DNA of 64,000 nucleotides from Nitrospirota bacterium (GTDB lineage: Bacteria; Nitrospirota; UBA9217): assembly GCA_963749655.1 (NCBI GenBank), contig CAVVOB010000022.1:32001-96000 (forward strand), written 5' to 3'. Shown one piece after another: positions 3,587 to 19,805 of this stretch. The notes beneath the pieces were generated by a model, which saw only the letters and a program-made list of their open reading frames with translations, was not told the DNA's origin and ran no database searches. The number at the start of each line of letters is the position of its first letter. The stretch's first letter is position 1. Both the position numbers and the translations under genes were made by a program.

Positions 3587-3615
3587 TTGACAAGAAACAG
3601 GTGAAATGCTAGAGT
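3587..3615 (+). promoter_or_regulatory. sigma70 promoter for the riboswitch-led operon
   Basis: TTGACA-17bp-TAGAGT with an extended -10 TG. Confidence 0.7.
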
Positions 3616-3649
3616 AACATCCATCGATTTCCATACCACACGAGTATTC

Positions 3650-3783
3650 CTTTGCTCAGAGCAAACTCCGGGAAACCGGAGGACGCAGAGCCACGAAGCT
3701 ACGTAAGACAACCCGGACTTCCCGGAAACCACACTGCCGGCGCAAAGTCTTTGTCGTTTTATACGCTAGTCGAGCCGCCAAAG
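3650..3783 (+). ncRNA. GEMM-I (c-di-GMP-I family) riboswitch aptamer, A20 variant (putative 3',3'-cGAMP sensor)
   Basis: P1 CTTTG/CAAAG; GAGCAAAC; P2 CTCCGG-GAAA-CCGGAG with GNRA loop; GACGCAGAGCCACG junction; 3' TAGTCGAGCCGCC; A at 3660 in the G20 position. Confidence 0.8.
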
Positions 3784-3822
3784 AACCGGCAGTGATCTGT
3801 TGACTTTGGCGGCATTTTTTTT
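3774..3822 (+). terminator. Riboswitch expression-platform terminator
   Basis: GCCGCCAAAG/CTTTGGCGGC 10 bp stem plus A(T)8; overlaps the 3' strand of P1. Confidence 0.85.
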
Positions 3823-3885
3823 GCGCTGACGCCCTGCCGTGCAGTCCGAGTCCACAGCAACCATTCTATCCTTCAGGAGGAAACC

Positions 3886-4344
3886 ATGACCTACTCGAAA
3901 AATATTCTGCTTCCCGTTCTGGCGCTTCTGGCGCTCGCGCTGGGCGCCTGTTCGCCGAAGATATACGGAACGGTCCAGCTCGTCGATGCGAACATGCAGC
4001 CGATCCCCCCTGCCGCGGATAATCCCCAGGGCACGGTGGTGAATATGATCAACACGAGCGTCGCGATCGAGAAAGCCTCCCAGTCCGTGTCGGTGAATGC
4101 CGAAGGCAAATACGAGTCCCTGAAGGATCAGGTGACGCCGGGTATCTACAAAGTGGAGGCGAGCAGGATCGGATACCTCACCGAGACCCTTTCCGTCGAG
4201 GTCACACGATTCGGCGGGAAAAAGGCGGACTTCAAGCTCAAGAAGATCCAGGAAGGGAAACGTAAGAGCATTGAAGGGTCCACCACCGATGAGAACAAGA
4301 TCGTGAACCCCGGCGAAGTCAACATCCAGCCGCCGACGATGTAG
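3886..4344 (+). CDS. Lipoprotein with carboxypeptidase-regulatory-like (Ig-like) domain
   Basis: AGGAGG RBS, lipobox LGAC, PGIYKVEASRIGY motif. Confidence 0.8.
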   Translation: MTYSKNILLPVLALLALALGACSPKIYGTVQLVDANMQPIPPAADNPQGTVVNMINTSVAIEKASQSVSVNAEGKYESLKDQVTPGIYKVEASRIGYLTETLSVEVTRFGGKKADFKLKKIQEGKRKSIEGSTTDENKIVNPGEVNIQPPTM

Positions 4345-4450
4345 GCCTTTTCAAGGCATCGCCCGGAATCCGCAAGAACCCGGTTCGTTCTTGCGGGGAA
4401 ACGGTTCCATGCAATACTATGGTTGCGTTTAACGACCAGGAGGCAGAGAT

Positions 4451-7026
4451 ATGATGAAGCGCATGATCCAGACGGCCCTGTTACTTTCGGCATCAATGCT
4501 TCTGTTCGCCTGTGGAGGCGAGAAATTCGAGCTCAAGGTCAAAGCGAATATGAACGGACAGCCTGCGGCCCTGGCAAAGGTTTCCGTGGACGGCCAGGAG
4601 CTGGGGCTCACCGATAACAACGGCGACTTTTCAAAGAATCTTGAAAGAAAGGCCGGTACCGAAGTCGCGATCACCGTGGCCAAGGAGCAGCCGGGCCATC
4701 ATACGAATCCCTGGAAAGGTTCCTTTGTCGTGAAGGCCTCGCGCAACGCTGCCGAGGTGTATTCCTTTACGGCGGATCTTTCCTCGGCCCCCTTTGTGAC
4801 GATCAAGGCTACCTCGAAAAACGAGCCTCTTTCCGATGCCGTAGTCAAGGTCGGGGGAAGGAAGCGGGCCGGACCAACGAGAAGGGCGAACTCCTTTACG
4901 AATACAAAGAAGCACCCGCCAAGGGCTTTGACATCTCCGTGAGCAAGGCCGGTTACGGAACATGGCACAAGACCGCAGCCGTCGAGCCCGGGCAGCAGAT
5001 CGAGGCGGCACTCAACAGACGGGTGACCGTGACGATCAATGCCCTTTCGGATGAATACGGAGAGCAGCGCGGCGTTCCGGGAATCAGTGTGAGCATCAAC
5101 CACACGACGGTCGGCAAGACGGATGCCAAGGGCACATTCGCCTGGACGTCCGACAAGGACCTGGGCAAAAAAGTTCCCATCGCGCTGTCCGCCTCCGGTT
5201 ACCTGCCGGAGAGCTGGCAGGGTTCGATCACCCTGGACGGCGAGGTCAGGGTCCAGCGCTATTTTTATCCCGTCACACCCCGGCCCATCAGGACCGGCAT
5301 CTACCGGTTTGCCGGCAATACGCCCAACGTGGATCTGAGGGACGTCCTTACGCAGACCGAGGATGCGATCGCGGCGCAGCTTTTCAAGAATGTCTGCTTC
5401 AGCAAAGTTCCGTCCCAGACCCTTCAGAGCGATATGAAACGCGCGAAGGTGAGCATCGAAAAGGTCACCACCAAGGGGTGGCGGACGACACCGCTCAAAA
5501 AGACGGTGGACATGATCGTCGTCGGAAGCGTGGCCAAGGACGACAAGGGCTATCTGATCGAAGCGAAGTTTTATGCGCCGGGCGGGACCCAGATCATCAG
5601 CCAGATCGCCCGGGCCAAGAGCGCTTCGGACATTGACGGCGCGGCGAAGGAAATCGTGAACGCGGTGATAGAGCGCTTTCCCTTCGAAGGGACGGTGGTC
5701 GGGACCGAGGAGGAGCGCTATCGCATCAATCTCGGCAAGTCCGGACTACCGGATTATCGAGGGGCACCGACTTCCAGGTCATGACGCCGCGCATGGATGA
5801 TGCCGGCAAGATCACGGCATATCGGGAAGCCGGCAAATTGCGGGTCAGGAAAGCGGAGGACAGCGGCTCCTGGACCGAAGTGGAGGAACTGAAAAAGGAC
5901 GAGAAGATCTCCATCGGAGACCGTGTCGTGCGTCGTGTCTACCGGGAAGGAGAGGAAGAAGGCGCCCGCAACTATTTCATTCTGTCCAGCAAAAGGCGGC
6001 ATTGCCTCCCGATGTGACTCCGCTGTCCGGCGTGAACATCTATGTGAACAACGAGTGGCTCGGCTCGACCGGCCCCGACGGCAAGGCGGAGGTCCCGGCG
6101 CGGATCAACAAGAGCGTCACCCTGCTCCTTGTACCGGCACGGATACCAGCAGGTGACCGAGAAGATCACGATCGAGAAGAACAAGGAAACGAAGGAGTTC
6201 GTCCTGGCAGTGAACAACGCAGTGTTCAGGGTCGATTCGCGTCCGCAGGGGGCTGAAGTTTTCGTGGACGACGAGCAGATCGGCAAGACCCCGCTCCTGG
6301 CCGGCAAGGCCGTGCCCCTGGGATTCCACACGATCAAAGTCACCATCGGCGGGGACTACCGCGACTGGGAAGAGGTCGTGGAGTTCGCCAAGAAAGAAGA
6401 AGACCGCACCGGTGAACGGTCGATCGTCCTTCCGAAGGACTGTCTGAAGATCGGCGAGCGCGCAGAGCAGAAGGGCGACGTCGACGGCGCGATCGCAGCG
6501 TACCAGAGCACCGAGAAGGGGCACCCCGATTATTCCGTGGCCCATCACCGGCTGGCGCAGCTGTATCTGGACGACAAGGCCGACTTTGACGGGGCCATCC
6601 GCGAGTTCGAGAACGTGCTGTCCCTCCCCGAGAACCAGCAGCTGGTGTACAAGCAGTTCTCCGTGGCCTTTATGAACCTCGGCCATGCCTATTACGAGAA
6701 GGGCAGCGCGCTCGTGCAGAAGGACACGCGAGGCGGCGGCGCAGAACTTCGGCAAGGCGATCCAGAACCTTCAGATTGCGAAGCAGAACACGCGGTTCTT
6801 CCCGAACGACCGTTATGACGAGGCGGTGCACGATACGTACTACTACACCGCACTCTCGTATCATAAGCTCTACCAGTTGACCAAAAAAGGCAATATCCTG
6901 AACAGCGCCAACCAGGCGTGGCGGGATTACTTCGACTTCTTCCCGAAAAAGCTCGAGGGGAACAGCACCTTTGAGCAGAGCCGGGAAGCGGCGCAGAAAT
7001 ACTGGGACCAGATCAAGAACCTGTAG
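4451..7026 (+). CDS. Large multidomain lipoprotein (Ig-like repeats, CsgG/TolB_N-like, FlgT_C-like, PEGA, TPR), split by several frameshifts
   Basis: Lipobox LFAC; repeated GxTD/xTxxxG beta motifs; PEGA motif VDSRPQGAEVFVDDEQIGKTP; TPR-like helices; overlapping ORF fragments from 4451 to 7026. Confidence 0.7.
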
Positions 7027-7047
7027 CGCCTGTCGGAGGACGGTATT

Positions 7048-8344
7048 GTGATAGTCGGGAAGGGACGTTCCATACTGGCATGCGCCGCGATCGTCGTTAC
7101 GCTGCAATCTTCAGCAACGGCGGGCGAGGTCCTGTCGGGGCCTGCGGGGACAACCGATTGCCAGTGCAGCGCGGGCGGGACAGTCAACGGGAGCGCCGGT
7201 TTCGGCGCCGTCCGCCACCCTGCAGAGCGTTATGAGCAGCGCCACGGGAACGTGCCCGTGCCCGGAAGAAAAAAAGCCCGCGCCGCTCGAGCCGCTGTCC
7301 CTTCGTCCCCTGGTCCCCATCGAAGCCGGCCGTAACGACTCGAATCCGGTCGTGGTCTCCCCGCGGCACCTTCATCGCCTTTGAGCGGAGCGTCGGGGAT
7401 ACGAAGGAGATCCGCATCGCACTGCCGGACGGCACGCCGGTTCAGACCATTTACTTCCTGCTGTCCGGCGGGCAGCAGGGACATGAAGTTCTTTTTCCCC
7501 GGGGTATCCGAGGAAACCAGCTATAACGCGGGCATCACCTGGTCGCCCGACGAGTACCGGTTCGTGTTCATGAGCAACGGCGGCGAGGGCAACTATGACC
7601 TGTATCTGCAGGACCTCGGCGCGGCAGCGCCGAAGCGGCTGACGGACCATAAGGAAAAGGACGGCCAGGCGCACTGGTCGCCGTTCCGGGGACCGCATCG
7701 TCTTCGTGTCGGGCAGGTCGGGCAACGGCGATGTGTACAGTCATGGACCTCGCGACGCGCGCCCTCACGCGCCTGACGCGGGGAGGCAAGGCATAGCTCT
7801 ATCCCCGGTGGTCGCCGGACGGCGAAGAAGATGGCCGTGATGCACGGCAGCAACGAGAACCATGATATCGTTCTGATCAATGACGCGGCCAGGCCGGCGG
7901 AGTCGCAGAGAGCGCTTACGACGTGGACCTCGGACGATCTGAGGCCTGTCTGGTCGCCGGACGGAAGGAAGATCGCCTTTTATTCCAATTATAATGCCGC
8001 AGGTGATCCCCGGGCCTGGTCGCTTGCGGTGATTGCCGCAGACGGTTCGGATCCCGCGGAGGGAGACGGGCTTGCCGCATGCGTCGTGGCGACGGACATC
8101 ATCCCCGATGTGGAGGCGGGTCCTGCGTGGATGCCCGACAGCAACCGGATCGTTTTCGTCAAGAACGACCGGCAGGAGTACAATCCGCTCTATGTTGCCG
8201 ATGTCGGTCCGGAAGACGGCCATTCCGATCAGGACGGACACGAAGATGAACCACGATGTCGCCGGTTCGGCCGACGGGACGATCGCGTTCCGCGCCCAGG
8301 TCAATCAGTGGGACCAGATCTATATCATGAAGCTGAAGGAGTGA
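7048..8344 (+). CDS. TolB-like beta-propeller (PD40 repeats) protein, frameshifted
   Basis: Repeated WSPRG/WSPDE/PRWSPDG/PVWSPDGRKIAF/PAWMPDS motifs across frames; signal-peptide-like N-terminus. Confidence 0.8.
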
Positions 8345-8349
8345 TTTAA

Positions 8350-8379
8350 GTGCGGAATGCGGAATGCGGAATGCGGATT
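8350..8379 (+). repeat. (GCGGAAT)n heptamer array
   Basis: gtgcggaatgcggaatgcggaatgcggatt. Confidence 0.9.
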
Positions 8380-9880
8380 GGGAAAATCGTTATCACGGGC
8401 ATTGTTGTCGGTTTCAGCGTCTGTTCATCATGCCCTGACGACGGGGACCGGCTTCCTGCTGCCGGATGATCGCCGTTGCCAAGGCGATGAAGCTCTATGA
8501 AAAGCGGCATTACGACGAAGCTGCCGGCGTGCTTCGCTCCGGCGCCGTCGATCCGTCCCGGCAGGGCGCGGCGAACCTTGCGCTCGGCATGGTCTATTTC
8601 AAGAATGCGGTGCTGCACCGCGAACTGTACCGGACCTCGGAACTGGTGTTCCAGGACTATCTGAAAAAGCTGTCCGCTGCCCAGGGCAGGGACCGGAGCC
8701 GCTTCGTCGATCTGTACTTCGGCGAGACCCTGCTCGAAGCGGGCAAGCCCGACGTGGCCGCGATCTATCTCGAAAAGTTCGCCAACACGGCGGGAATCGA
8801 TCAGAAATACCAGGCGATCGCGAACGTCAGTCTCGGCCTCAGCTACTACCGGAGCAAGGAAAGCCAGAAGGCCGCGGACCTGTGGGCGGCCATCGATGCC
8901 ACGGACCCCGAGGTGAAGGCCGAGCTGGCGGCGGCCTACAGCAAGGCGGGCATCACGGACAAGAACGCCGAGGCGCTCATCGACGAGGCCCTGGGTGCAG
9001 CGAAAAAATCGGGCAAGCCGGTCACGGTACGGATGGTGAAGAACATGCTGGCCGTCTATGTCCGGGCCGGACAGACCGAGAAAGGCCTGGACCTGCTCAA
9101 GCGCGCGGACCTGAAGGCGTTTTCGTACCGGGAGACGCTGGGAAAGTCCAAGGTCATCAATTTCTACGACTTGTCCCTGCTGGGCGACATGGCCGACATC
9201 TACGGACGAGCGGCAATAACGTACCTCGATAAGGCCGCAGCGGACGGGAAGACGAAGAGCATCGCCGAATTCTATCTCGCTCAGGCCCAGGCGCTGTTCG
9301 GCTCCCTCGATCAGTCCTCGAAGGTCGCCGCTTCGTTCATGGCGACAGCGCAGCTGCCGCAGCAGTACAAGGACCTTATGCAGGTGTGGCAGACCGCCAA
9401 CGTATACCAGCGAAGCCGCAAGGCAGAGGCAACCGCCCTCTGGAATGAGTTTTCCCAGAAGCAGGCCGCGGATCCGGACGTGCTCGCCGAGATTTTGTTC
9501 ACCTGCGGCAGGCTGAAGATCGATTGTCCGAAGGTCGTTCAAAAGGCCTCGATTGCGGCCGAAGCCGGGGAAGGGAAAAAGTTCGCGAACCTGAACATCG
9601 CCGTCGGAACCTACTATCTCGGCCGTCTGGACACTGCAAGGGCGTCGCCTACCTGGAGGCCGGCCGCGACAAGGGCAACAAGAACAAGATCGAGTCGAAT
9701 GATCCGGTGATGCTCGTGAGCCTTGCCGATGCCTACTTCCGGACCAAGAAATTTTCCGAAGCCCTTGAGATCTATTTCGAGATGAGCAAACAGTTCCCCG
9801 AGGTGCGCCAGATCCAGGACGCCCTGCAGGGGGTCTATGCCATGGAGCACAAAAGCGCGGGAGACGTGAAGATCAATTAA
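8371..9880 (+). CDS. Secreted TPR-repeat protein, frameshifted
   Basis: Signal-like MRIGKIVITGIVV; helical TPR-like ORFs 8466-9710 and 9524-9880. Confidence 0.7.
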
Positions 9881-10239: not shown

Positions 10240-11856
10240 ATGAAACGGACACTGGTGATGCTGCTGCTGATCGCGCCTTCATTACGGCGGGGGCCGATGC
10301 CTGGGCGGGCCGCAAGAACGACAACCGGCCCGACGGCGGGACCCTCAGCTACGGCGAGTACGGCCGGCCGGCGACGCTCGACCCGATCACGAGCAACGAG
10401 ATGATCTCGCTGCGGCTCACGGAGCTGATCTTCAACGGGCTCGTGGGCATCAACGAGAAGCAGGAGATCGTGCCCGAGCTGGCGGAGAAGTGGGAGACGC
10501 TCCCGGACCGGCGCACCTACACGTTCTTCCTCTGCGCAAGGACGTGACCTGGCACCCGAACGAAGGCGAGGAAGCCAAACCGTTCACGGCCGATGATGTG
10601 GTCTTCACCTACAACATCATGATGCACCCCAAGACCATCACGCCGCTCAAGGTGCGGTACGAGTTCATCGCCGCGTCGAGAAGATCGATGACTAGACGGT
10701 GAAATTCACGCTCAAGCGGCCGATCCTGAACGCGCTGGCCAAGTTCAGCTTCAAGATCATCCCGAAGCACGGCCCGGCCAACTCCGCTGTACCTCACGCG
10801 GGACGATCCCTTTGTCCAGAACCCCATCGGCACCGGCCCCTATATGCTGAAGAACGTTACCGCCGAGCGCGAGATCGTGCTGGTGGCGAACGAAAATTAT
10901 TTCAAGGGCAGGCCGCATATCGACAAGTTGGTGGCCAAACCCTTTGCGGACCAGAACATCATGACGCAGGCGCTCATGTTCAACGCCATCGACATGATCG
11001 TGCTGGTGAACCCGCGCGACATTCCCGAGATCCAGGGCGACAAGCGCTTCATCCTGCAGCCCTACAACGCGCTGTCGTACTCGTTCTTCGGCTACAACTC
11101 TGCGGAACCCGCTGCTTGCGGACAAGCGCGTGCGCAAGGCCTTCACCTATGCCGTGAACCGGCAGGAGATGCTCGACTCCTTCTTCAACGGACAGGGCAC
11201 CATCATCTCCGGGCCCTTTTGCGCCCGGGAGCTGGGCCTACAACCTCGATGTGCAGCCCCTTGCCTTTGATCCCGAAAAGGCGAAGGCGCTGCTGCAGGA
11301 GGCGGGCTTCACCCGCGGCGCGGACGGCATCATGCAGAAGGACGGCAAGAGGCTGTCGCTGACCCTCAAGGTGCCGATCGAGAAGGAGAGCGAGGCGGTG
11401 AAGCGCGTGGTGCTCGCGTTCAAGAACTATCTCAAGAACGTCGGCGTCGACGTCAAGGTGGAGTTCAAGGAGTGGCAGGCCTGGAAGGAAGACGTGTTCC
11501 TGGAGCACGATTTCGACATCGTTTTCGCCTCCTGGGTGTTCGACGATTCGGCGGACATCTCGTCGCTGTTCCATTCCGCCGAGATCGGAGCATGGAAAAA
11601 CAATTTCGGCGGCTATTCGAATCCCGAGGTGGACGGTCTGATCAACGAAAGCAAGCTCACGCTGGACCATGAGAAGCGGCGGACCATCAACCGCAAGCTG
11701 CACGCGATCCTGGCCGACGAGAACCCCTATACGTTCCTCTGGACGCTCACGAACTACGCGGGATACCACAAGAAGGTCCGGCACGTGGCGATCCATCCCT
11801 ACAAGTTCTTCTCCTATGCCGATGACTGGTTCATGGAAGGGAAAGACCAGAAGTAA
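10240..11856 (+). CDS. ABC transporter substrate-binding protein, family 5 (OppA/DppA-like); frameshifted with one in-frame TAG
   Basis: GAGGAGG RBS; TLDP, PELAEKW, FTADDVVFT, PIGTGPY, YSNPEVD motifs. Confidence 0.85.
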
Positions 11857-18739: not shown

Positions 18740-19805
18740 GTGAAAGACGACAGGAGCACTGCGTCGGGCATCGGGGAATCAATCCTGCGGGAGCAGGTGC
18801 GCCTTGCCGTCGACCAGCTGCCGACGATGCAGATTGCCTCCTTTCTCGTGGCGGTTGTTCTGTCCTTTGTTGTTCGCGAGTTCGTTCCGGACGAGAACAT
18901 TGCCATATGGCTTTCCCTGGTTGCGCTTGTCGCTGTCAGCAGGATCATATTTTATTACCGGTTTGTCGGAGTGAGCAAGGGGCCTTTCGACGGCAGGTTA
19001 TGGAGAAAGGCATACCTCCTCCTGGCGCTGGCTTCGGGCGTCATCTGGGGTCTTTCGGCTTTTCTCATTTTTCCCGTTCAGAATATTGCTTTCATCTCTT
19101 TGTTCGTCCTCGTCATTGCCAGTTTGTCGGCAGCCACAACCATATCCCATTCGTCACTGCGGCTCGGTCCCGCAGCATGGGCTTTCCCGGCCATGCTGCT
19201 CTATGCCACGCGCTGTTTCATCGAACGCGGAGCGGCGGAATATACCATAGGGCTGCTTATCGTGCTGTATCTCATCGCGACCGTGATCCATTCATTCAAG
19301 CACAACAAGCTCATTACCTCCGCTATCTCCCTGAAGTTCGAGAACATTGAACGAGAGTCTGGACCGCGAGTGGCGTCGAGCGGCGCGAGAGGGCAAGTCG
19401 ATTTCCCTGGTCATGGTGGACATCGATCATTTCAAGGCATTCAATGATACCTACGGCCATCAGGCAGGAGACGAATGTCTCAAAAAGGTGGCTCTTGAAA
19501 TAGCCCGCTCCGCCAAACGTCCGGCCGATCTGGCTGCCAGGTACGGCGGCGAGGAGTTCATAATACTGCTCCCCGACACCGATATCCAAGGCGCGACCGA
19601 GATCGCGGAAAAGCTGCGCATTGCGATCGAAGTCCTCGGCACGCCCCATGCTCATTCCTCCGCCGCAAGTGTCGTGACCGTCAGCGTGGGAGCAACCGCT
19701 CTCGTCCCCGAGCAGGGAACGGAACCGACCCGGCTCGTCAGGCTGGTGGATAAGGGGTTATATGCCGCCAAACATGACGGACGCAACCGAGTGAGAGCGC
19801 TCTGA
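18740..19805 (+). pseudogene. Membrane-bound diguanylate cyclase (GGEEF) with apparent internal deletion and frameshift
   Basis: Multi-TM N-terminus; DIDHFKAFNDTYGHQAGD and RPADLAARYGGEEF present; DxLT/NRR region absent at the ~19347 junction. Confidence 0.7.

Follow-up and report, generated by a model that had tools for sequence, protein, structure and literature searches.

The stretch of 64,000 nucleotides analysed here (hereafter the window) is part of contig 22 of a 4.27-Mb metagenome-assembled genome (MAG) of Nitrospirota, which consists of 39 contigs and is 86.6% complete. At positions 3650–3822 of the forward strand it carries an RNA element that lies upstream of an operon for predicted lipoproteins. 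The element is, with high confidence, a cyclic-dinucleotide riboswitch with the GEMM-I fold, of the type with A at position 20 (A20, GEMM-Ib-like), and its expression platform has the design of a transcriptional ON switch; this confidence covers the fold, the conserved A and the ON design taken together. The physiological ligand could well be cGAMP (3',3'-cyclic GMP-AMP), an assignment about which our judgement is evenly divided, and most likely the operon is switched on when the signal rises. Studies of cGAMP riboswitches and of the Hypr GGDEF enzymes exist for Geobacter, Myxococcus and Bdellovibrio. Our literature search found no work on Nitrospirota that deals with cGAMP, GEMM riboswitches or Hypr GGDEF enzymes, apart from an incidental mention, and nothing on cyclic di-GMP (c-di-GMP) riboswitches in Thermodesulfovibrio, which agrees with an earlier note on this DNA, made from the letters alone, whose author knew of no characterised cGAMP signalling in such a host.

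Both strands of the whole window were scanned with Rfam models at gathering thresholds. The only match was to RF01051 (c-di-GMP-I), at 3650–3782 on the forward strand, with 52.9 bits against a cut-off of 35 and an E-value of 1.7e-07, and it covered model positions 1–87 of 87. The covariance-model check that the earlier note had proposed thus returned a significant, full-length match, and every GEMM-I element listed there was found in its place. Helix P1 is formed by CUUUG (3650–3654) and CAAAG (3779–3783). GCAAAC lies at 3661–3666, GACGC at 3682–3686 and GCCGCC at 3774–3779; a G-C clamp joins 3661–3662 with 3685–3686. The first hairpin (3666–3681; stem 3666–3671/3676–3681) is capped by GAAA in the loop 3672–3675. 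It is followed by the junction A-G-A (3687–3689) and by helix P3 (3689–3776), which consists of a lower stem, 3689–3699/3765–3776, and an upper stem, 3704–3711/3754–3761.

Three linked departures from the RF01051 consensus are seen in the ligand pocket. At model position 11 the consensus is a G, unpaired and 5' of the G-C clamp, and the window has A3660. We take this position to be G20 of the Vc2 aptamer, the ligand-specificity position, following the Vc2 numbering. A3687 occupies the column of A47, which is presumably the intercalating base, and G3688 (position 48) stands where A is usual, giving AGA where the consensus has AAA. Finally, A3689 (position 49) lies opposite C3776 and forms a conserved A.C mismatch at the first pair of P3, beside the pocket. 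The AGA junction and this mismatch, together with a long insertion in P3, are features beyond those described in the earlier note. According to the model alignment, C3778 stands in the column of Vc2 C92, the pairing partner of the ligand's G (PMC6140456), and the placing of the G20 column fits the account of G20 (A14 in Gs1761) and C92 in that paper.

For an unbiased test of conservation, loci were chosen by homology to the protein of the first downstream gene and not by the RNA. Of 64 genomes in the family to which the MAG belongs, 41 gave a match to this protein, and an RF01051 match was present upstream in 27 of the 29 loci from other genomes. In locus L513 an aptamer was recognised by pattern with a score under the Rfam cut-off, and at L507, one of the 29, no riboswitch was seen upstream. 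In each of the 27 matches, model position 11 was A and the junction carried the G of AGA; the GCCGCC ending was present in 26. The A was retained across at least 15 genera and never drifted to G. It is clear that A3660 is therefore not a read error, an objection which the earlier note had itself raised, and the A at the specificity position is, judged from this comparison, selected. RF01051 was also present in all 24 family genomes that were searched with the model.

The helices were examined in an alignment (A1) of 28 related sequences. Its rows were found by an RNA pattern containing A20 and the AGA junction, so that parts of the 5' half are fixed and invariance at the pattern columns is uninformative. 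In this alignment 89.7% of the helix cells were paired and 14 of 31 pairs showed a compensatory change, a level reached by none of 500 shuffles. The changes were found in four of the six pairs of the GAAA-capped hairpin and in ten pairs over the two helices of P3. The 5' strand of P1 (CUUUG), the G-C clamp and C3778 were invariant, and since P1 never varies, it gives no covariation. The A.C pair (columns 40/157) was non-standard in 28 of 28 rows.

An intrinsic terminator occupies 3774–3822. Its 5' arm, GCCGCCAAAG (3774–3783), is separated by a 20-nt loop (3784–3803) from the 3' arm, CTTTGGCGGC (3804–3813), and the stem is followed by A3814 and a tract of eight T, U in the RNA (3815–3822). The hairpin was present in both the minimum free energy and the centroid folds of 3622–3830; the fold had an energy of -69.1 kcal/mol and a z-score of -3.54, and none of 200 shuffles was equally stable. 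The 5' arm of the terminator is at the same time the 3' strand of the aptamer: it contains the end of P3, C3778 and the 3' strand of P1. The two folds are therefore mutually exclusive, and binding of the ligand should permit read-through. The earlier note had described a 10-bp terminator that shares the P1 3' strand and excludes P1, with ON logic, and this description was borne out by the folds and by the relatives: the same shared-strand arrangement was seen in 28 of 28 related sequences, with hairpins of -12.8 to -29.9 kcal/mol, and in the terminator register 96.8% of the cells were paired, compared with 34–58% in slid registers. One point counts against the terminator reading, namely that the 5' arm never varies and so provides no covariation of its own. 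Experiments have demonstrated the same ON design, in which the terminator takes the ligand-pairing C75, in the pilM cGAMP riboswitch of G. metallireducens (PMC9262584).

Upstream of the aptamer we found a sigma-70-like promoter, TTGACA-17-TAGAGT with a TG extension (3587–3615, forward strand), by consensus match only, with 10 of 12 matches; one such site was found, compared with a mean of 0.2 in 50 shuffles. Transcription is predicted to start at about 3622, some 28 nt ahead of P1, and the aptamer (3650–3783) would then emerge first. With the ligand bound, C3778 would pair with a G of the ligand, A3660 would read the second base, and P1 (3650–3654/3779–3783) would close. In this state GCCGCCAAAG would be kept in the aptamer, the terminator would be blocked, and RNA polymerase would enter the envelope-lipoprotein operon of about 6 kb. 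Without the ligand, the ten bases 3774–3783 would pair with 3804–3813 and transcription would stop at the U8 tract. The likely ligand would be cGAMP, perhaps with a residual response to c-di-GMP, and it would be made by a non-canonical Ser-type GGDEF enzyme of the family. Among public sequencing runs, the best contained at most 0.14 of the sampled words, and the single RNA run 0.08.

We also looked at how the pocket changes are distributed. In the 64 family genomes the combination of G20 with A48 gave 113 matches and that of A20 with A48 gave 17, about ten of them hairpin-like by reading. G20 with G48 gave seven matches, none of them hairpin-like, against ten matches of the control; G48 was therefore seen only with A20 in these genomes. 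A20 together with G48 was found in 46 of 63 family genomes and in the genome studied here. From these counts A20 is coupled to the second pocket change, the AGA junction. Across the phylum the pattern AGAGCAAAC-N(12–24)-CGCAGAGC occurred in 72 of 401 sampled genomes, and a reversed-pattern control gave three matches. By family, the pattern was present in 46/63 genomes of f1, the family of our MAG, in all six of f2 and all three of f6, in 4/11 of f8, 2/76 of f9, 0/28 of f10 and 0/40 of f17.

A scan with one genome per species gave at least 120 stretches, 80 of them listed, and about 36 of these 80 were true aptamers by reading: about 11 from Nitrospirota, 12 from Gemmatimonadota, six from Acidobacteriota, four from Desulfuromonadales or Geobacteraceae, two from 'delta proteobacteria' and one from a mislabelled contig of the genus of our MAG. 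The A20/AGA/GCCGCC signature was also present in riboswitches of Geobacteraceae and Desulfuromonadales (L306, L311, L317, L319, L323). One Geobacteraceae MAG had 24 GEMM-I matches of several subtypes, one of which was A20/AGA/GCCGCC. The signature motifs are absent from the main texts of PMC8835794 and PMC9262584, and a literature search with a nine-letter motif gave only papers on other subjects.

The element resembles the Geobacter GEMM-Ib riboswitches (Gs1761 (pgcA), Gmet_0970, pilM) in its GEMM-I fold, A20 and C92, in the ON switch whose terminator takes the aptamer 3' strand including the ligand-pairing C, and in the control of genes for extracytoplasmic proteins; with a subset of the Geobacteraceae riboswitches it also shares AGA/GCCGCC. 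It differs from them in its Nitrospirota host, in the long variable insertion in P3 and in the regulated genes, which here encode PEGA, TPR and PD40 lipoproteins and not cytochromes or pilus proteins. Unlike Geobacter, the genome is without a GacA-type Ser/GGDEF cyclase among its parsed domains, and the ligand is predicted from sequence. With Vc2 and the G20 riboswitches of RF01051 the element shares the family model, the helices, the GNRA tetraloop of the first hairpin and the A47 and C92 columns, but it has A at 20, AGA instead of AAA and the A.C mismatch at the base of P3. The model RF03167 (c-di-GMP-I-GGC) belongs to the same clan, CL00126, and in our genome one riboswitch matches it and four are similar, of the GCC...GG type; these have G20 and a flipped C-G clamp, whereas the element described here does not match RF03167 best.

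If the RNA responds to cGAMP, the genome may be expected to hold a synthase of the Hypr GGDEF or of the DncV type; Hypr enzymes have Ser or Thr at the position of PleD D344 (PMC9140294). The genome had 31 matches to PF00990, from which 21 GGDEF domains were parsed, and the specificity position was Asp in 16 of them, Asn in three and Ser in two. The search for a cGAMP synthase, which the earlier note had suggested in the form of a Hypr GGDEF or a CD-NTase, had a divided outcome: neither a canonical Hypr enzyme nor a SMODS CD-NTase was found, but there were non-canonical Ser/GGEEF and Ser/GGDDF candidates and one HD-GYP protein with the RxxQ motif. In the 86.6%-complete genome there was no match to PF18144, the SMODS-type CD-NTase, and no Rec-GGDEF ortholog of GacA was seen.

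The first candidate (L044) is a GAF-GGDEF protein encoded at 760–2052 of its locus, which corresponds to about 23659–24951 of contig 14, on the forward strand. Its best match in the PDB was GacA (6d9m), in which GHLEGSRVL aligns to GHLVGSQVL with Ser on Ser. The protein thus has the Hypr serine at the PleD D344 position, but in place of GGDE[F/Y] it carries GGEEF, unlike GacA, where the serine is paired with GGDEF; Ser with GGEEF was retained in 30 of 30 orthologs. Of 63 family genomes 61 had the gene, as against none of 337 genomes of other families. As a marker for the riboswitch it was rejected, as it occurs in f1 only and the riboswitch pattern also in f2, f6, f8 and others, so that the overlap is partial. 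Two paralogous GGDEF proteins of the same genome (L037 and L040, contigs 35 and 30) have Asn (GHEKGN) with GGEEF, and the nearest neighbour of the Ser/GGEEF enzyme is a related Asn/GGEEF protein in genome G350.

The second candidate, L059, is a transmembrane HAMP-GGDDF protein with the Hypr serine (GYANGSEVI ... GGDDF), and it has an Asn paralog, L060. Its orthologs in the family had Ser with GGDD[FY] in 12 of 12 cases, and its identity to similarly built proteins from Desulfuromonadales, which likewise have Ser and GGDD[FY], is 45–46%. Compared by description only, it fits the build of GSU1937 (a transmembrane HAMP protein with the Hypr serine and GGDDF and without EAL or HD-GYP), which is the second cGAMP cyclase (PMC8835794). 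By their sequences, the two candidates recall the Hypr pathway of GacA (GSU1658) and GSU1937, having Ser at the D344 position and, in the second case, a GSU1937-like HAMP-GGDDF build. A 100% complete genome of the same genus likewise contained one Ser/GGEEF and one Ser/GGDDF protein among 12 parsed domains. A further likeness is to the cGAMP-specific HD-GYP protein PmxA: one of the ten HD-GYP proteins of our genome has RxxQ (RAYQ; contig 15, 142623–143057, reverse strand), a motif that has been tied to cGAMP-specific hydrolysis and has a frequency of 4.69% (bioRxiv 10.1101/600031). At a distance of about 1 kb, also on the reverse strand, is a GGDEF gene (141190–141663).

In the wider phylum, the riboswitch-rich genomes G044 and G350, both from outside the family, had two canonical Ser/GGDEF enzymes of the GAF-GGDEF type each (2/2). 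In the pattern-free genomes G043 and G207 no Ser/GGDEF enzyme was found among 29 and 25 parsed domains (0/2). With one canonical enzyme as a query, 173 of 401 genomes matched at an E-value of 1e-55 or better, and all 28 parsable loci of the top 30 (L464–L493) had Ser with GGDEF, so that predicted Hypr enzymes are common in Nitrospirota; Hypr domains have been quoted as 0.17% of GGDEF domains (PMC9140294). Matches were found in 1/76 genomes of f9, 0/28 of f10, 0/14 of f16 and 0/40 of f17. In the family of our MAG, among the matches listed, identity to the canonical enzyme was just 35–39%, with frames of about 700 aa.

In favour of cGAMP as the ligand, four points weigh most: the strict retention of A beside the G-type riboswitches of the same genome, the coupled change in the pocket, the presence of the signature in Geobacteraceae, and the Hypr enzymes in other Nitrospirota that bear the riboswitch. 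Many GEMM-I RNAs of Geobacter are cGAMP-selective, one of them about 1200-fold, and after the change A20G the Gmet_0970 riboswitch selects c-di-GMP instead of cGAMP (PMC6456294). A20 is also needed for recognition of cGAMP (PMC6140456).

Several observations weigh against this assignment, most strongly that the canonical synthase is missing in the family and that dual binding is known for A20 RNAs. Vc2 with G20A binds c-di-GMP at 53 nM and cGAMP at 120 nM, and among the natural GEMM-Ib RNAs several accept both ligands (PMC6140456); A20 is therefore necessary, not sufficient, for cGAMP selectivity. The earlier note had called G20A the hallmark of cGAMP-preferring aptamers, which holds for recognition of cGAMP but does not imply selectivity. 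The subtype of Geobacteraceae riboswitches that we take to be Gs1761-like has the junction AAA and not AGA. No canonical Ser/GGDEF enzyme was found among the 21 parsed of 31 matches in our genome, nor among 12 parsed of 19 in the complete genome of the same genus, and the family, judged from these surveys, has the largest number of riboswitches and yet lacks the canonical enzyme. The candidates have weak points as well. According to the 'Goldilocks' rule, Ser/GGEEF is inactive and natural Ser/Thr enzymes carry only GGDE[F/Y] (PMC6456294). The margin of L044 in the PDB comparison was slim (115 bits for GacA 6d9m, 112 for WspR), and in a FastTree tree of 111 domains it stood beside an Asn/GGEEF protein and not with the Ser/GGDEF group. 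The HAMP-GGDDF family was found in 202 of 401 genomes, including those of families without the riboswitch pattern (33/35 of f11, 14/14 of f16); its presence therefore does not discriminate, and its co-occurrence with the riboswitch was set aside as uninformative. For the RxxQ protein, the chance of finding one among ten HD-GYPs is about 4 in 10, given the frequency of 4.69%.

These points lend some weight to c-di-GMP alone as the ligand, with A20/AGA being a lower-affinity variant whose threshold is unlike that of the five G20 riboswitches of the genome; we consider this a serious alternative, though an unlikely one. With a protonated adenine, A20 RNAs are able to take up c-di-GMP (PMC6140456), about 25 GGDEF domains are present in the genome, most of them with Asp, and the SMODS CD-NTase was not found there; the absence of a canonical Hypr enzyme in both genomes of the genus examined and the reported inactivity of Ser/GGEEF point in the same direction. 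Against a variant c-di-GMP sensor stand the A in 27 of 27 orthologous riboswitches from at least 15 genera, the fact that G48 was never seen together with G20, a signature common to Geobacteraceae, and canonical Hypr enzymes in the other riboswitch-rich Nitrospirota genomes examined. The natural bispecific RNAs mentioned above are also a precedent for a sensor in which cGAMP and c-di-GMP both open the switch in vivo, so that the operon would integrate two messenger pools. No observation made here contradicts this outright; the tight coupling of A20 and AGA suggests instead a pocket shaped for a single ligand, and we regard dual sensing as improbable.

Still less probable, in our view, is that some other purine-containing cyclic or linear dinucleotide is sensed and that the AGA and A.C changes represent an undescribed specificity. 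The three linked departures from the RF01051 consensus would fit such a ligand, and so would the non-canonical nature of the only Ser-type cyclases in the family; however, the C at the C92 column and the A at the A47 column are kept, and Geobacteraceae, a group with established cGAMP signalling, share the signature. Finally, the unusually long P3 insertion and the weak upper terminator stem of the copy in the window might suggest a decayed or non-regulatory remnant. With a score well over the Rfam cut-off and an aptamer and terminator conserved with compensatory changes before the same gene at 27 of 29 loci, this seems hardly credible.

The linked A20/AGA/GCCGCC pocket may define a class of cGAMP riboswitches in at least four phyla (named here as Nitrospirota, Desulfuromonadales, Acidobacteriota and Gemmatimonadota), with the Ser/GGEEF or HAMP-GGDDF enzyme as the writer in our family. 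We offer this only as a tentative proposal, built on sequence comparison, that is possible and yet doubtful. If it were true, a serine-type cyclase would break the published rule that GGDEF is needed, and cGAMP would be a general signal for surface remodelling in anaerobic sediment bacteria, well beyond Geobacter. In any case, the conserved A20 riboswitch, the terminator read-out, the defined operon and three candidate enzymes make a testable case in uncultured Nitrospirota bearing dsrA, and it is the ligand assignment and the Ser/GGEEF enzyme that make a bench test worthwhile. Selectivity of the RNA for cGAMP would extend cGAMP signalling beyond its known range, make AGA/GCCGCC a cheap marker for re-annotating 'c-di-GMP-I' matches in metagenomes, and allow the 'Goldilocks' model to be tested directly on the Ser/GGEEF enzyme. 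If the RNA binds c-di-GMP only, A20 is unreliable as a marker outside Geobacter.

The host had been described in the earlier note as sulfate-reducer-like, and this is supported to the extent that dsrA is present in the genome (560 bits against a cut-off of 393). The operon downstream of the riboswitch extends from 3886 to 9710 on the forward strand, as far as strand and spacing indicate, and encodes predicted lipoproteins and periplasmic proteins. Its first gene (3886–4344; ATG at 3886–3888) is preceded by the ribosome-binding site AGGAGG (3875–3880), and the protein has a weak CarboxypepD_reg-like match under the Pfam cut-off. It is followed, on the same strand, by the genes 4451–4942, 4939–5784 and 5781–6017, by a PEGA and TPR gene (6129–6818), by PD40/TolB-like fragments (7381–7776 and 7831–8349) and by the last gene (8466–9710). 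Protein atlas leads were TPR-like for the 414-aa protein of the operon (0.95) and PEGA/CsgG for the 281-aa protein (0.86). None of the families matched by the operon proteins gives the operon a named function; it is probably an envelope or surface module. A cluster of ABC-transporter genes begins at about 10.8 kb, beyond the operon.

The nearest named relatives of the first downstream protein were in three Nitrospirota MAGs, with 68–71% identity. Relatives 45–64% identical were found in Gallionellaceae, Sulfurifustaceae, Nitrosomonadales, Rokubacteria, Gemmatimonadales and others (L011–L031). When 20 of the 25 loci found were scanned, GEMM-I was seen at three Nitrospirota loci only and at none of the 17 non-Nitrospirota loci. 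The occurrence of the first gene in other groups without GEMM-I suggests an envelope module exchanged laterally, with riboswitch control in Nitrospirota only.

The insertion in P3, which amounts to 50 nt at the P3 loop in the Rfam alignment, contains a species-variable part at 3712–3753 (forward strand), whose length is about 5–72 nt among relatives and whose sequence is not conserved. Within it, CACUGCCGG (3732–3740) is a perfect 9-nt complement of CCGGCAGUG (3786–3794) in the terminator loop, and none of 500 loop shuffles equalled this complementarity. No significant counterpart was seen in any of 27 relatives, where the longest was 6 nt; by this comparison, the pairing is specific to the lineage of our MAG. 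As a general mechanism it was rejected, both on this account and in view of the variable length and sequence of the insertion. The insertion also holds CAAAG (3743–3747) and CUUUG (3749–3753), copies of the words that form the P1 strands.

Five further GEMM-I riboswitches in the genome (L001, L003, L005, L006, L007) have G at position 20, so that two types of sensor coexist there. All five have the flipped C-G clamp and are of the GCC...GG type, and L001 matches RF03167 with 72 bits. An HD-GYP gene is located about 1 kb upstream of L006, and L007 is upstream of a GGDEF gene that is apparently split into two frames. A second A20/AGA riboswitch, L002 (59.3 bits), was found on contig 22 at 123409–123497 (reverse strand), about 27 kb past the end of the window. 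It has no terminator; pairing of the 5' leader CCUUCUCUGCU with AGCAGAGGAGG at the ribosome-binding site is possible, which points to a switch acting on translation, again with ON logic. The gene downstream of L002 encodes a lipoprotein with at least five Big_2 repeats (189 bits).

Within the window, the coding regions for the PD40/TolB-like protein (7381–8349) and for an SBP_bac_5 protein (10844–11856) each consist of two overlapping or adjacent frames, which suggests frameshifts or errors in the MAG assembly. A GGDEF domain of the Asp type with GGEEF is encoded at 19341–19790, in a short frame (156 aa) from which profile positions 1–12 are missing. In another genome (G019, contig 12, 559950–560850; L124), two complete A20 riboswitches stand in tandem about 290 nt apart, with one gene downstream, and each of them has its own terminator.

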